Shown here: in pieces, positions 49,456 through 54,823 of the stretch
Layout of the letters: every line of letters starts with the position of its first letter
How positions within the stretch are numbered: position 1 is the stretch's first letter
Assembly: GCA_002505775.1 (NCBI GenBank)
Contig: DAVY01000020.1
Coordinates: 4,860-68,859 of the forward strand
From: Euryarchaeota archaeon UBA130
Lineage (GTDB): Archaea > Thermoplasmatota > Poseidoniia > Poseidoniales > Thalassarchaeaceae
Reading direction: 5' to 3'
Length of the DNA stretch: 64,000 nucleotides
Program-made: the position numbers and the translations under genes
Notes under the pieces: generated by a model
Databases searched by the model: none
What the model was told of the DNA's origin: nothing
Seen by the model: the letters and a program-made list of their open reading frames with translations, nothing else

Positions 49456-49542
49456 CGGCTGAAGTAGCCATGTGACCAAATGGTGCCCTACCACGCATGG
49501 TTGAGGGTAATGGTTATCCTCTGTAGTACTCGCCTAACCCAC

Positions 49543-50661
49543 ATGAAGCATCTCATCAACAGAGTTCTGGAGCTTGATGAGGAGTCCGAATTACCCTTAG
49601 GACCTATAGATACCGAAAGTGATCCGGAGCTTCAGAGCTTACTGATGTCATTGCAACCAAAGATACGTGTCTTTGGATGTGGGGGATGTGGTTCTAATAC
49701 TGTTGCAAGACTGGAACATGAGGACCTCTTCGATGACGAGTATGTCAGAGGAATTGCAGTAAACACTGACGCGCAACACTTGTTGCGAGTGGCTGTCAAG
49801 AATAAGATTCTGATTGGAAGATCAGCGCGAGGCAGGGGCGCTGGAGGAGATCCAGAAAAGGGCGAACAGGCGGCATACGAATCCGAGAGGTCCCTGAAGG
49901 CGGAGATTGAGTCGTGCGATCTTGCCTTCATCACAGCTGGTCTAGGCGGGGGAACAGGGACCGGAAGTGCCCATGTTGTAGCAAGGCTGGCCAGAGCCGC
50001 TGGCGCGCTAACAATCGCAGTGGTTAGCTATCCCTTCCTATCTGAAGGAGCTCTGAGGAGACAAAATGCTGAGTGGGGCCTAGAGAGATTAAGGGAGGTC
50101 TGCGATACAGTTGTTGTGCTTCCAAATGAGAGGCTTTTGGAGGTTGATGGAGTAAGAGAGCTCCCTCTCGACGCGGCATTCAGAGTAGCAGATGAGCTCC
50201 TGATGCGAAGCATCAAGGGGGTTTCAGAGATGATAGCCAAAGAAGGAGTGGTTAATCTGGACTTCCAGGATTTGCGATCTGTTATGGAAAATGGAGGTGG
50301 AGTGGCAATGATCGGACTCGGTGAGGCCAGAGGTGAAGGAATGGCAGAAGCCGCCACAGAGGAGGCGTTGCAATCTCCACTTCTGGATATCGATGTGTCC
50401 GATGCCAGAGGCGCGTTAGTCAATGTCGTAGGTGGCCCCAGTCTCTCTCTCGGTGACGCTGAATCATGTGCCAAGATCATAAGGGACAAGATCAACCCAT
50501 ATGCTAGAATAATCTGGGGAGCTACTACTGATCCTAGCATGGGCGATGGCATCAGAGTTCTGCTGGTTCTGACAGGAGTGAAGAGTGAGCAGATTCATGG
50601 TGCTGCGTTGCATACCCAGATGAGGAATTTGAAGAGTAGGACAGTGGAGTTTGTCGGATAG
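49543..50661 (+). CDS. ftsZ: Cell division protein FtsZ
   Basis: 'RVFGCGGCGSNTV', 'NTDAQHL', 'ITAGLGGGTGTGSAHVVARLAR'. Confidence 0.93.
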   Translation: MKHLINRVLELDEESELPLGPIDTESDPELQSLLMSLQPKIRVFGCGGCGSNTVARLEHEDLFDDEYVRGIAVNTDAQHLLRVAVKNKILIGRSARGRGAGGDPEKGEQAAYESERSLKAEIESCDLAFITAGLGGGTGTGSAHVVARLARAAGALTIAVVSYPFLSEGALRRQNAEWGLERLREVCDTVVVLPNERLLEVDGVRELPLDAAFRVADELLMRSIKGVSEMIAKEGVVNLDFQDLRSVMENGGGVAMIGLGEARGEGMAEAATEEALQSPLLDIDVSDARGALVNVVGGPSLSLGDAESCAKIIRDKINPYARIIWGATTDPSMGDGIRVLLVLTGVKSEQIHGAALHTQMRNLKSRTVEFVG

Positions 50662-50740: not shown

Positions 50741-51004
50741 ATGAGTGTTGAGAGTTCCAATGTTGGCGCTGTCGAAGAGACCGTACAGGGTTGGCAGGAC
50801 GGTATCGAAGGAAGGATTAAGGGACTGCAAACTGGTTCTTACGCTAGAATCCTGAAGATGGCAAGAAAGCCCTCCAAGCAAGAGTTCAGGCAGACTGTGA
50901 TAGTTTGTGGAATCGGTATGCTGGTGCTCGGATTAATAGGATTCGTGATGCTGTGGGGGATGGACACCTTGTTGCCTGACTTCTTCAGATGGTTGACCAA
51001 TTAA
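50741..51004 (+). CDS. secE: Preprotein translocase subunit SecE (Sec61gamma)
   Basis: 'ILKMARKPSKQEFRQTVIVCGIGMLVLGLIGFVM', single TM; conserved position before spt5. Confidence 0.8.
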   Translation: MSVESSNVGAVEETVQGWQDGIEGRIKGLQTGSYARILKMARKPSKQEFRQTVIVCGIGMLVLGLIGFVMLWGMDTLLPDFFRWLTN

Positions 51005-51008
51005 GAGG

Positions 51009-51917
51009 GTGAAAAACATGTCAGATGCTTTTGTTGCTTACATTCGTCATGAAGAGAAGGTCCTATTGATGCAAAGAGCCGATGAGGTCTCTGATTTCCC
51101 CGGTGCTTGGGATGGAGTCTACGGAGTAGGAGATTCAAATGACCTAGATGCAGTTGCTTCGAGGATCGAGGAGGCAACAGGTATTCCCCATGAGAGCCTG
51201 ACCTTCGTCAGATCTGGTGACGCCAGGGGTCTTGAGTTCGGGAACCGGCTGAATGATGTAACTCCTCTGCTTTTCCTTTGTGATACCGAAGAGGTAACCG
51301 CCAAAGGACTTTACAAGAGCTACAATTGGGTCGACCCGGGTTACATCAACTGGGTGGAGCCCGAAGATTCCTCTGATAGCAGATCAACCAGATATATGGT
51401 CCCTCAACTCGGGAATATGTATGGTGACGTGGCTTCATTCCTCTACATATTGAAGACCAGCATGGGTCAAGAGCAGAATGTGGCCAGGGAAATCAGGGCT
51501 AGGTTATCTGGGACTGGATCGCTACAAGACATTCAAGACAAGATATTCGGGGTCCTAAGTCCTAGCTATCTGAAGGGATTCATATTCGTCGAAGCCACCG
51601 CCATTCATCACGTTGAGAAACTAATAGGCAGAGTTGGAGTATCAGCTACCCCAATGAAGAACTGTCGGAAGGTGTTGGACGGCGAGTCGCCATTAAGGGA
51701 CATCCTACCATACCTAGAACCGAAGGCCGCAACAACCGGAATCGAGGAAGGAAACATCGTGGAAATACGCGGGGGCGCCTTCAAGGGTGCTTCGGCCCGT
51801 GTGATTGGCGTAAGCGAGTCGAAAGAGGAAGTCACGGTCGAGTTATTCGAGGCGGCAGTCCCAGTAGCCCTCAACATAAGGGCCGATCAGGTAAGGGTCA
51901 CCCAAAGAATGGAGTGA
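51009..51917 (+). CDS. spt5: Transcription elongation factor Spt5/NusG with in-frame N-terminal Nudix-like domain
   Basis: The C-terminal 165 aa form NGN ('FLYILKTSMGQEQNVAREI...KGFIFVEA') plus KOW ('GNIVEIRGGAFKGASARVIGV'). Residues 1-135, 'KVLLMQRADEVSDFPGAWDGVYGVGDSNDLDAVASRIEEATGI', look like a degenerate Nudix box. No stop separates the parts. Confidence 0.8.
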   Translation: MKNMSDAFVAYIRHEEKVLLMQRADEVSDFPGAWDGVYGVGDSNDLDAVASRIEEATGIPHESLTFVRSGDARGLEFGNRLNDVTPLLFLCDTEEVTAKGLYKSYNWVDPGYINWVEPEDSSDSRSTRYMVPQLGNMYGDVASFLYILKTSMGQEQNVAREIRARLSGTGSLQDIQDKIFGVLSPSYLKGFIFVEATAIHHVEKLIGRVGVSATPMKNCRKVLDGESPLRDILPYLEPKAATTGIEEGNIVEIRGGAFKGASARVIGVSESKEEVTVELFEAAVPVALNIRADQVRVTQRME

Positions 51918-51981
51918 GATTAGGGGGATCTGGTCACTTACATCACGCTCAAATAGGGAGAGTAGGTCGGCGAGGCACTCA

Positions 51982-51986
51982 GGAGG
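51982..51986 (+). promoter_or_regulatory. Shine-Dalgarno-like GGAGG 10 nt upstream of the rpl11 ATG
   Basis: Read directly ('aggagggggatttagtATG'). A similar GGAGGTG lies at 52316-52322 before rpl1. Confidence 0.45.
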
Positions 51987-51996
51987 GGGATTTAGT

Positions 51997-52275
51997 ATGT
52001 CAGCGCGCAATGAAACCCCTCACAAAATAATCCAGTCACTTGGTAAAAAGAAGTGTAACGGATCCTGGGAGGAAGCAACGGAAAACCTCACAATGGATCA
52101 GGTAAAGAAGATCGCTGATGAGCAGAAAGACCGCCTCACTGGTGCAACTCTTTACGCTAGGTGCAGGGAAGTCATGGGAACATGCGTATCAATGAGAGTA
52201 AATGTCGAGGGGATGTCTCCAAAAGACGCCTTGAATGCTATGAGCAAGGGGGAATTTGCCGAGCATTTCGCTTGA
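51997..52275 (+). CDS. rpl11: 50S ribosomal protein L11, C-terminal (rRNA-binding) domain only
   Basis: 'NLTMDQVKKIADEQKDRLTGATLYARCREVMGTCVSMRVNVEGMSPKDAL' matches the L11 C-domain. It is only 92 aa, and the GPPLGPALG-containing N-domain is absent. Confidence 0.75.
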   Translation: MSARNETPHKIIQSLGKKKCNGSWEEATENLTMDQVKKIADEQKDRLTGATLYARCREVMGTCVSMRVNVEGMSPKDALNAMSKGEFAEHFA

Positions 52276-52329: not shown

Positions 52330-52974
52330 ATGAAGGAAAATATACAGAACGCTATTCAGCAAGCCCTAGAAGGGTCTCCTGAGCGTAAGTTCGTAGAGTC
52401 AATGGAGATCTCATTTACATTGAAGGACGTAGATCTCAAGAACCCAGCTAACAGGATACAGGAGGAGGTTCGGCTCCCATCAGGCAGGGGCAAACCCGTC
52501 AAGATCGCAATGTTCGCAGGAGGAGAGATGTCCACAAAGGCCAAGGCGGCTGGATTGGATGTAATCGACCCATCGACAATAGAGGATATTGGAGGTAATC
52601 GCCAGCAAGCAAGAAAGATGGCGAATAGATATGATTTCTTCCTGTCCGAGATTCCACACATGGGGACCGTCGGAAGGTTCCTCGGGGTCGTTTTGGGACC
52701 AAGAGGTAAGATGCCTCGCCCCGTACCTCCGAATGTGGATCCCGCAATGATAGCTGCGGGTCTGAAGGACACAGCGGTTGTGAGGTCCAGAGATAAGATA
52801 ACCTTCCACACCGCCCTAGGTTCCAGAGAGCAGGGCCTTGACGATCTCACGATGAATGCCATGGCTATCTGGAACAGAGTGATGAGCAAGCTTGAGAGAG
52901 GCCCTGGAAATATCAGGTCCTGCTACATCAAGACATCCATGGGCCCCTCTTACAAGGTCGAGGTGATTGCTTGA
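52330..52974 (+). CDS. rpl1: 50S ribosomal protein L1
   Basis: 214 aa; 'RKFVESMEISFTLKDVDLKNPANRI', 'FLSEIPHMGTVGRFLGVVLGPRGKMP'. Conserved cluster position. Confidence 0.9.
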   Translation: MKENIQNAIQQALEGSPERKFVESMEISFTLKDVDLKNPANRIQEEVRLPSGRGKPVKIAMFAGGEMSTKAKAAGLDVIDPSTIEDIGGNRQQARKMANRYDFFLSEIPHMGTVGRFLGVVLGPRGKMPRPVPPNVDPAMIAAGLKDTAVVRSRDKITFHTALGSREQGLDDLTMNAMAIWNRVMSKLERGPGNIRSCYIKTSMGPSYKVEVIA

Positions 52975-53990
52975 TTCCCAAGGTCGCGTCATGGAAGCCG
53001 GACCGTGTGACTGAGCTAAGGGACATAGTCTCCAAAGAGGGAATTGTTGGTGTTGTGGATATTTCGGGAGTCCCTGCAAAGAATATGCTGGACATGAGAA
53101 ACTCCCTAAGGGGAATGATGACAATGACCATGGCCAAAAAGAGCCTTATCAGGATTGCATGGAAGGAAGCCGGCCTTTCCGAGGATGATCTAGAAGAGCT
53201 CCTTGAAGGCGCGATTCAGCCATGCGTGGTACACACTGATTCGTTGAACTGCTATGAGTTGTTTGATGAGTTGGAGAAAACCAGGCAAGGTAGAGCCGCA
53301 AAGGAGGGAGAAATTGCCCCAGAGGACATTGTCGTAGAAGCGGGGCCAACAGAGTTTGGACCGGGACCGATTGTCGGTGAGTTCAACGCAGTTGGGATTC
53401 CGGCAAAGATAGACAAGGGCGCGGTAGCTATCCAGAAAACAGTTACTGTAGTCAACAAGGGAGAGCCAATCGAGGGAGATCTTGGGCTAATGCTCTCAAA
53501 GCTTGGAATAAACCCTATCGAGATCGGATTGATACTGATGGGAGTCATTGATGACGGAGAAGTTCTTTCTTCCTCAGACCTAGACTTGGACACAGATGGT
53601 CTCAAGAGCGATATTATCTCAGCTACCTCGAACGCTTACAACCTAGCATGTAACGTACGCTGGTTCTCCAGTGTCACAATGCCTGCTCTGCTTTCCAAGG
53701 CTAGCAGTGAGGCCCTATCAGTTGCCTTGGAAGCTGGGGTCGTCAACGAAGACACTGCCTCGGCGATAATTTCCCGTGCTAACGCACGTGCCATGGCCAT
53801 AGCCGGCCAGTTAGATTCCTCAGCTCTCGATGAAGAGCTAGTTGCCGCACTTGGTGCGGTAGCGAGCACATCTGGTGCTGAAGTCGCTTCCTCCGAAGCG
53901 GCTGAAGGAGCGGCCGAAGAAGTCGCAAATGAGGAAGAGGAGGAAGAGGAGGAAGCTGGGTTCGGTGGACTTGGCGATCTCTTCGGATGA
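52971..53990 (+). CDS. rplP0: 50S ribosomal stalk protein P0 (L10)
   Basis: '[14 protein letters not shown]...[23 protein letters not shown]' and acidic tail '[19 protein letters not shown]'. TTG start overlaps the rpl1 stop. Confidence 0.9.
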
Positions 53991-54006: not shown

Positions 54007-54318
54007 ATGGAATATGTATATGCTGCAATGCTACTGCACTCTGCTGAGAAAGAGATTGATGAGAATGGCGTTAGCGCTGTGCTAACCGCCGCTGGAGTGG
54101 ATGCTGACAGCGCCCGTGTTAAGGCACTGGTTGCGTCGTTAGGATCCGTCGATATCGGAGAAGCTATGGCTACCGCTATAGCAGCACCCGTTGCCACAGG
54201 CGCCGCGCCTGCCGCAGCCGCAGGAGGAGCTTCAGAGGCTCCTGCCGAGGCCGCTGCTGAAGAGGAGCCTGAGGAAGACGATGGTGGATTCGAGGGTCTC
54301 GGCTCTTTGTTCGGATAA
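54007..54318 (+). CDS. rpl12: 50S ribosomal stalk protein P1 (L12)
   Basis: '[31 protein letters not shown]...' with Ala-rich hinge and tail '[15 protein letters not shown]'. ATG 54007 has GGTGA upstream. Confidence 0.9.
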
Positions 54319-54379: not shown

Positions 54380-54823
54380 ATGCACCCCAATCGTATACTA
54401 GAGATTCCAGTCTCAATAACCCCCACCGATGCGATTAGGTACTTCAGAATAGCATGTGAAAGACGAGGATGGGAAGGGACCAGGCTGGAAGAAAGCAGGG
54501 TAGTTCACAGATGGGCCATCATAATGCCCATAGCTAGGTCAGCAAGAGTGATTGGGCTCTCGATAGATAGTGGTTCTGGAGTGGGTCTGTCTTTGAGATC
54601 ATGGAGCTACACACCTGGTTCTGCAGGTAGCATAACTATGGTTTCATTCGAGATTCCATCGGGAATAGATGGAGATGAGTGGTCTACTTTCCTTCGTGAG
54701 TGGCATGATTCCCTTCCTAGGTGCCCTTGGAAGTGGAGTTTTGGAGAGCGCTCCATGATTGGCTACTTCAGTCCAGAATTCAGAAAATCAAGAAAGGCGT
54801 TTTTGTCAGAGGGTATTATTTGA
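54380..54823 (+). CDS. Hypothetical protein
   Basis: 147-aa ORF; no motif recognised. Confidence 0.35.
   Translation: MHPNRILEIPVSITPTDAIRYFRIACERRGWEGTRLEESRVVHRWAIIMPIARSARVIGLSIDSGSGVGLSLRSWSYTPGSAGSITMVSFEIPSGIDGDEWSTFLREWHDSLPRCPWKWSFGERSMIGYFSPEFRKSRKAFLSEGII

Follow-up and report, generated by a model that had tools for sequence, protein, structure and literature searches.

In a 64,000-nucleotide stretch of DNA from a Poseidoniales archaeon, analyzed as a whole and referred to here as the window, the slot of the ribosomal protein gene rpl11 was found to hold an ORF of only 92 amino acids, which encodes the linker and C-terminal domain (CTD) of uL11 and lacks the N-terminal domain (NTD). 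This ORF is probably the genuine and only uL11 of the organism, the NTD having been lost across the whole lineage and, independently, elsewhere. The uL11 NTD is a textbook part of the GTPase-associated center in all three domains of life. It makes contact with factors of elongation and release, and in bacteria with RelA, and forms the cleft for thiopeptides, where thiostrepton binds between the NTD and nucleotides 1067/1095; the target of the CTD is helices H43/H44 of the 23S rRNA. Otherwise the NTD is, to our knowledge, present throughout the three domains of life, and a successful free-living lineage that has lost it completely is hence a priori surprising. Marine Group II (MGII) archaea, to which the Poseidoniales belong, make up a large share of the archaea in the surface ocean, where they are among the most abundant.

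The short rpl11 gene was placed in a spt5(nusG)-L11-L1-L10/P0-L12/P1 cluster, an order that is repeated in related loci (Table 1). Direct reading of the sequence located its start codon ATG at 51997 and its stop codon TGA at 52273-52275. None of the 34 codons separating the upstream in-frame TAA from this ATG is an ATG, GTG, or TTG. Between the end of spt5 (51917) and the start of the L1 gene (52330), the only other ORFs on the plus strand are of 38 and 55 aa, with none of 60 aa or more. A preliminary description of the locus had given the same start, stop, start-free interval, and spacing of the GGAGG motif, and all of these were reproduced by direct reading and the ORF list. The neighbors it had named were likewise recovered from Pfam matches and the ORF list (FtsZ, SecE, Spt5, L1, P0 with its L10 and RL10P_insert domains, and P1).

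Table 1. Features of the rpl11 locus, in window coordinates.
Feature	Position	Strand	Description
FtsZ	49480-50661		Cluster neighbor
secE	50741..51004	+	PF00584
spt5 (NGN + KOW)	51009..51917	+	PF03439, PF00467; upstream neighbor of rpl11
In-frame TAA	51892..51894	+	Closes the rpl11 frame 34 codons 5' of the ATG
spt5-rpl11 intergenic spacer	51918..51996	+	79 bp; too short for a domain of ~65 aa
Shine-Dalgarno-like GGAGG	51982..51986	+	10 nt before the rpl11 ATG; read from the sequence
uL11 (rpl11): linker, C-terminal rRNA-binding domain, archaeal C-terminal helix	51997..52275	+	92 aa; PF00298, NF002232, AF2/Foldseek
uL1 (rpl1)	52330..52974	+	214 aa, normal length; PF00687 E = 1.6e-42; NF003244 247.7 bits, above cut-off
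P0/uL10	52971..53990	+	339 aa, normal length; insertion (EXT) domain and acidic tail; PF00466, PF17777
P1 stalk protein	54007..54318	+	103 aa; GLGxLFG-type tail; from translation
147-aa ORF	54380-54823		Just downstream of P1; conserved in 61 related loci

The tails of P0 and P1 both end in GLGxLFG, and the stalk is otherwise canonical as judged by translations and Pfam. P1 was also identified in 78 related loci, where it lies approximately 2.0 kb downstream from the start of L11. The Spt5 protein carries an N-terminal extension of 145 aa, with the TIGR00405 model spanning aa 146-300. This extension is weakly Nudix-like and unlike L11, and a structure model of the whole Spt5 reached a pLDDT of just 42.6. 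A scan for sigma-70 promoters and terminators was uninformative, as the host is an archaeon, and the MGII 23S rRNA is not present in the 64-kb window.

By its C-domain, the 92-aa protein is a member of the uL11 family, and it falls outside the definition of a two-domain, full-length L11. It matched the Pfam family PF00298 with an E-value of 1.2e-8 and 35.6 bits (cut-off 21.4), where aa 10-70 covered profile positions 8-69 of 69, and it had no match to Ribosomal_L11_N (PF03946) at E <= 1. The NCBIfam model of archaeal L11, NF002232, was matched solely at positions 77-158 of 164, with a score of 59.9 bits against the equivalog cut-off of 162 for a full-length protein. This low score is presumably why the MGII protein is named "hypothetical protein" in NCBI records; in IMG it is annotated as L11. 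In a PDB search with a profile of 21 homologues, aa 7-91 aligned with residues 73-158 of the Pyrococcus furiosus L11 (E = 2.9e-14) and residues 10-91 aligned with residues 76-158 of the Methanocaldococcus jannaschii L11.

The predicted structure agreed with these alignments. An AF2 model of the protein (pLDDT 82.8) included helices at residues 7-15, 33-42, 52-66, and 75-83, and displayed the three-helix CTD fold together with the archaeal C-terminal helix. Its best Foldseek match was the M. jannaschii L11 chain 5d8h_C (TMq 0.87, rmsd 1.4 Å over 88 columns), from a crystal structure of the P-stalk base, where the model superposes on the C-terminal half of L11. It also matched 4v9f_I (TMq 0.83), as well as crystal structures of the isolated L11 C-domain with rRNA, 1hc8 and 1y39 (rmsd 1.4-1.6 Å). 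The linker is preceded by nine new and nearly invariant residues, MSARNETPH. The earlier assignment of the slot to just the linker and the C-terminal 23S-binding domain was thus upheld by HMM, PDB-sequence, and fold comparisons, including the HMM check that had been proposed for it, where PF00298 was found and PF03946 was absent.

The oddity of such a gene could in itself raise the suspicion of an assembly deletion, a pseudogene, or a mis-called start in this MAG, an explanation that retains practically no probability given its recurrence in related genomes. The gene is 100% identical to that on contig DANW01000001.1 of "Euryarchaeota archaeon UBA28", a Marine Group II (Poseidoniales) MAG. A search among 5.8 billion protein clusters identified 178 related clusters, which were named Poseidoniales or Thalassarchaeaceae and included contigs of up to 794 kb. 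Among the best 120 of these clusters, with identities of 73-98% and PF00298 as the only domain, 114 were exactly 92 aa long, and the six longer entries were upstream start mis-calls or a read-through. Additionally, a scan of GTDB genomes, using patterns specific to the short form, identified relatives of the protein in 206 species genomes.

All 80 of the 80 species-level loci inspected, including single-cell genomes and a long-read (PacBio) MAG, contained an ATG followed by exactly 92 codons. A GGAGG/GGGGG-like motif occurred at the same distance from the ATG in nearly all of them, and the nearest in-frame stop was located 1-66 codons upstream. An ORF maintained at 92 codons in every one of 80 related genomes is far beyond chance. 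The short rpl11 is under strong purifying selection, with a dN/dS of approximately 0.05 (452 pairs, median dS 0.88). It is also transcribed: four metatranscriptome assemblies span secE-spt5-L11-L1-P0 colinearly, without indels or joints, and four independent DNA assemblies from different studies (2014-2025) are colinear over the same genes. The sequence of the window is thus borne out by eight independent assemblies of RNA and DNA, and the close relatives all carry the short gene, with none of approximately 160 aa; a full-length gene in reads or close relatives was the outcome that the preliminary description had named as refuting its claim. Taken with the dN/dS and the 80 loci, these comparisons refute an artefact. 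A continuation of translation from spt5 into L11, by readthrough or frameshift, was similarly rejected, as the two frames differ, the upstream stops vary between genomes, and the RNA contigs include no joints or indels.

Other members of the order demonstrated some variation of the short protein. A 93-aa Poseidoniales form, which probably belongs to the MGIIa type, shares 48% identity with the window protein and has the same truncation in the same cluster, next to an Spt5 of 304 aa. In the probable MGIIa loci, ORFs located between spt5 and L11 were considered as diverged NTDs and rejected, as they encode hydrophobic membrane proteins. A form of 101 aa occurs in Thalassarchaeaceae. A potential His/Cys metal site (H9, C20, C63, and H90) was dropped from consideration, since conservation of the four residues does not extend to the 93-aa and 101-aa forms.

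The missing domain was searched for both within the loci and in sequence databases. Five L11 NTD probes gave only chance matches by tblastn against the window and 80 + 8 loci (best E-values 0.29-0.75). A profile HMM was built from 16 real archaeal NTDs, with positive controls scoring 98-114 bits, and was applied to six-frame translations of 1.02 Mb in total, comprising the window and 88 related or analogous loci, where the best E-value was 2.7. The scan extended over 6-8 kb on either side of the gene in each of the 88 loci. A fusion of the NTD to a neighboring protein was rejected, as L1, P0, and P1 are of normal size and domain composition and the Spt5 extension is not L11-like. The earlier claim that the NTD cannot be rescued locally was upheld as well.

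A full-length rpl11 located elsewhere in the genome, with the short gene as an extra copy, could have escaped the GTDB scan, whose patterns were specific to the short form. This arrangement is highly improbable: in all loci, it is the short gene that sits in the canonical slot of the spt5-L11-L1-P0-P1 cluster, it is under strong purifying selection, and archaeal ribosomal protein genes are normally single-copy. No Poseidoniales were among the named full-length matches listed by two database searches, although the order is very heavily sampled. In addition, a chimeric query that joined a Thermoplasmatota NTD to the CTD of the window protein was searched against the 5.8 billion clusters, and an MGII-type CTD was not found in any full-length L11. 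The matches were canonical Thermoplasmatota L11 proteins of at most 198 bits, with a CTD identity of at most 45% and none of the MGII motifs. Since this query would have ranked a full-length L11 of the MGII type at the top and none was returned, such close relatives are apparently absent from the searched databases.

Split protein genes occur in archaea, and the NTD could conceivably be made from a distant gene, or as a fusion to another protein, and join the ribosome in trans. This explanation is unlikely, although the NTD scan was confined to loci and a divergent standalone NTD could hide beyond the best 120 of the 7422 matches to the NTD profile. That database search was saturated by ordinary L11 fragments, and its negative outcome is a weak one. 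Among the best 120 of the 7422 matches, no Poseidoniales sequence was present, and every N-only match was a singleton fragment rather than a multi-contig marine protein, whereas MGII proteins typically form multi-contig marine clusters. Two of the N-only ORFs, situated on long contigs, were examined as precedents for a split gene and rejected; each proved to be a full-length gene broken by a frameshift, with its C-part next to it, on a low-coverage long-read contig. Another match, labeled "Euryarchaeota archaeon", was an ordinary L11 cut by the end of its contig, beside an Spt5 without the MGII extension. The architecture of the protein also argues against a free NTD. The CTD binds the large-subunit rRNA and the NTD contacts translation factors, and the two domains fold independently, with the NTD being mobile and held on the ribosome mainly via the linker (PMC9122527). 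An NTD separated from the linker would therefore be left without its anchor.

The short form of uL11 is not confined to the Poseidoniales. When 1.84 billion cluster representatives were searched exhaustively with HMMER, and names were taken from cluster look-ups, CTD-only uL11 proteins were identified in marine low-GC Woesearchaeota (89 aa, on a 447-kb contig), Aenigmarchaeota (138 aa), Micrarchaeota (93 aa), Ca. Tiddalikarchaeum (194 aa), and one Aigarchaeota MAG (100 aa). Approximately 15 distinct clusters at 50% identity of NTD-less forms starting with methionine were found among the representatives, with the genomic context checked for part of them. In the three loci inspected outside the Poseidoniales, those of Woesearchaeota, Aenigmarchaeota, and Aigarchaeota, the short uL11 begins from -4 to +48 nt after spt5, which provides no space for an NTD ORF. 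All short forms start 3-12 residues ahead of the linker motif T-x-x-L-I-K-K-E-L-G, which in the alignment is the exact domain boundary. Other sequences labeled as Woesearchaeota or Aenigmarchaeota, as well as Thermoplasmatota in general, have a normal L11 of 157-160 aa, which indicates that the truncations are independent and have arisen repeatedly. A split gene would consequently require repeated, independent events of splitting and relocation, given the truncation in at least four other lineages.

The preliminary description had offered two options, namely an unusual GTPase-associated center or a split L11. The first is favored by the lack of an NTD in 1.0 Mb of sequence from 88 loci and by the recurrence of the short form elsewhere, and the second stays as the doubtful alternative. 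It is likely that the GTPase-associated center in MGII and several DPANN lineages has no uL11 NTD, which would be either dispensable or replaced by an unrecognized protein or rRNA element; the center would then also be thiopeptide-insensitive. The ribosomes of MGII thus probably work without the factor-contacting half of uL11.

A replacement by a non-homologous element is one form that this could take, where the role of the NTD is assumed by another protein or an expanded neighbor, such as the P0 insertion domain or the 147-aa ORF. The P0/uL10 insertion (EXT) domain is normally a neighbor of the NTD of uL11 and, like it, binds factors (PMC9122527), and the 147-aa ORF, which has no match in Pfam or PDB, directly follows P1 in 61 related loci. 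Nonetheless, P0, L1, and P1 are of ordinary length and domain content, a ribosomal role of the 147-aa ORF is a conjecture, and, judging from gene calls, no counterpart of the ORF is evident in the other lineages without an NTD. A takeover of this kind is accordingly rated as quite unlikely.

For the favored reading, that of a plain loss of the domain, the following sequence of events is proposed. The ancestor of the order Poseidoniales would have lost an NTD of approximately 70 residues by a deletion exactly at the domain boundary, leaving a remnant composed of MSARNETPH, the linker, the three-helix rRNA-binding domain, and the archaeal C-terminal helix. Presumably incorporated in the ribosome, the 92-aa uL11 may still bind and stabilize H43/H44 at the base of the P stalk, beside P0, and nucleate the stalk base, with the site of the mobile NTD predicted to be empty. 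The factors aEF1A and aEF2, along with other GTPases, would then be recruited and activated via the tails of the P0(P1)n stalk together with the sarcin-ricin loop and the insertion domain of P0. The cleft that binds thiopeptides (thiostrepton/micrococcin) is predicted to be lost as a side effect. Independently of the Poseidoniales, the same reduction took place in the Aigarchaeota MAG and in several lineages of DPANN. Its recurrence in streamlined lineages, such as the planktonic MGII and the DPANN, fits a reductive evolution of a dispensable module, and the Aigarchaeota case shows that the loss of the NTD is not restricted to streamlined lineages.

Full-text searching of the literature identified no description of an NTD-less archaeal uL11, although one may still be published, and such a form is not mentioned in a COG-based survey of dispensable ribosomal proteins. 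The finding is one of domain loss and not of a new system, and it is surprising to ribosome specialists, ecologically prominent, and directly testable. If true, a natural and order-wide uL11 without the NTD would demonstrate that free-living cells can dispense with the domain. It would also offer ribosome biochemists a natural minimal stalk base for testing the contribution of the NTD, and the MGII and DPANN organisms are predicted to be intrinsically insensitive to thiopeptide antibiotics. For genome surveys, PF03946 and the full-length L11 equivalog models are invalid as single-copy markers in the NTD-less lineages. Together with the label "hypothetical protein", this failure of markers slightly biases completeness estimates and annotation.

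Compared with canonical archaeal uL11, as in M. jannaschii (5COL/5D8H/5DAR) and P. furiosus (4V6U chain BH), the MGII protein occupies the same gene slot after spt5 and has the C-terminal fold and helix in common (38% identity, TMq 0.87, rmsd 1.4 Å). In contrast, it is without residues ~1-72, which comprise the whole NTD including the GPPLGPALGP motif, and it includes two features that are not found in the canonical protein, namely the N-terminus MSARNETPH and a KKCNGSW loop. Even with the nearest full-length L11 proteins, those of Thermoplasmatota, its CTD shares an identity of at most 45%. The NTD-less proteins of DPANN and Aigarchaeota resemble that of MGII in starting just before the linker motif, but they share an identity of just 24-36% with it, lack the MGII motifs KKCNGSW and MRV, and in some cases carry long charged C-terminal tails.

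Ribosomes without the NTD also exist in strains that are deficient in the entire protein. Bacterial mutants lacking L11 are thiostrepton-resistant, and their ribosomes are functional at reduced efficiency. Similarly, yeast without uL11 (the rpl12a/b double deletion) is viable but slow-growing (PMC9122527). These strains resemble MGII in that their ribosomes have no NTD, but they are laboratory mutants with growth defects in which the CTD is gone as well, whereas MGII lacks no more than the NTD, a condition that is fixed among abundant lineages in the wild.

A closer counterpart in domain content is L11-C76, the isolated C-terminal domain of L11, which 1HC8 and 1Y39 contain in complex with the 58-nt rRNA of the GTPase center. 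The isolated CTD, of approximately 70 residues, binds and stabilizes H43/H44 on its own in vitro. Like the MGII protein, L11-C76 consists of the CTD only, and the C-domain folds superimpose with an rmsd of 1.4-1.6 Å. L11-C76 is a laboratory truncation of a bacterial protein, whereas the truncation in MGII is natural and order-wide and retains the archaeal C-terminal helix. The isolated CTD offers the best model of how the natural protein of 92 aa would work.

Beyond the Poseidoniales, uL11 genes without the N-terminal domain (NTD) were found directly after spt5 in the Aenigmarchaeota, in an Aigarchaeota MAG, and in the abundant marine low-GC Woesearchaeota, and these cases appear to represent independent domain losses. 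In the Woesearchaeota locus, L1-P0-P1 is inverted and alaS lies between this block and L11.

Features in the window and in the genomic loci fetched around uL11 genes (L numbers; coordinates within each locus)
Feature	Location	Strand	Remarks
Spt5 N-terminal extension	window 51009-51443	+	145 aa; ahead of the NGN domain
ORF downstream of P1	window 54380-54823	+	147 aa; 62 nt 3' of P1, same strand
NTD-less uL11 genes	L081/L082 5001-5417; L083 5001-5303; L085/L086 8001-8270		immediately 3' of spt5
Small hydrophobic (membrane) protein genes	L087 7008-7884; L088 6423-7886		2 or 3, between spt5 and rpl11
Apparent split L11	L089 4001-4490; L090 4001-4487		N-only ORF overlaps C-only ORF

The apparent split of L11 in two long-read, low-coverage metagenome contigs most likely reflects frameshift errors; automatic counts of split or truncated L11 genes call for caution. 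Among the proteins identified by a HMMER search of 1.84 billion cluster representatives with the Marine Group II (MGII) uL11 profile, the 103-aa P0184 begins with MYAVIETGGKQYRV, which resembles the N-terminus of bacterial L21, and continues directly into the uL11 linker and C-domain. Chimerism, an assembly artefact, or mere chance may account for this arrangement. Three very long proteins, P0131 (1557 aa), P0179 (1168 aa), and P0256 (1460 aa), each matched a short central stretch of the profile at 5-10 separate sites, probably through repeats or low-complexity sequence.

Several archaeal uL11 proteins (P0172, P0194, P0204, P0171, and P0229) carry C-terminal tails of 50-180 residues rich in lysine, glutamate, alanine, and proline, and a long tail of this type was also observed on the full-length P0142 and P0148. 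The tailed proteins included both NTD-bearing and NTD-less forms, and three of them (P0172, P0229, and P0148) had DPANN source labels.

In the two Poseidoniales loci that encode a 93-aa uL11, which are probably MGIIa, the otherwise tight linkage of spt5 and L11 is broken by inserted membrane protein genes. The ORF downstream of P1 retained its position in 61 related loci, with a median identity of 62%, and matched nothing in sequence comparisons with Pfam and the PDB; a role as a lineage-specific component of the stalk operon is possible.

Of the 91 loci that were fetched, 82 encode the N-terminal extension of Spt5 according to tblastn; the probable MGIIa loci, where Spt5 has 304 aa, are among them. 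Its similarity to Nudix proteins was weak (IPP isomerase TIGR02150, E=0.048; ADP-ribose pyrophosphatase 3o8s, E=0.49), its Nudix box appeared degenerate when inspected by eye, and an AF2 model of the whole Spt5 gave no usable fold (pLDDT 42.6). Spt5 is 302 aa long in the window, compared to approximately 150 aa in other archaea.
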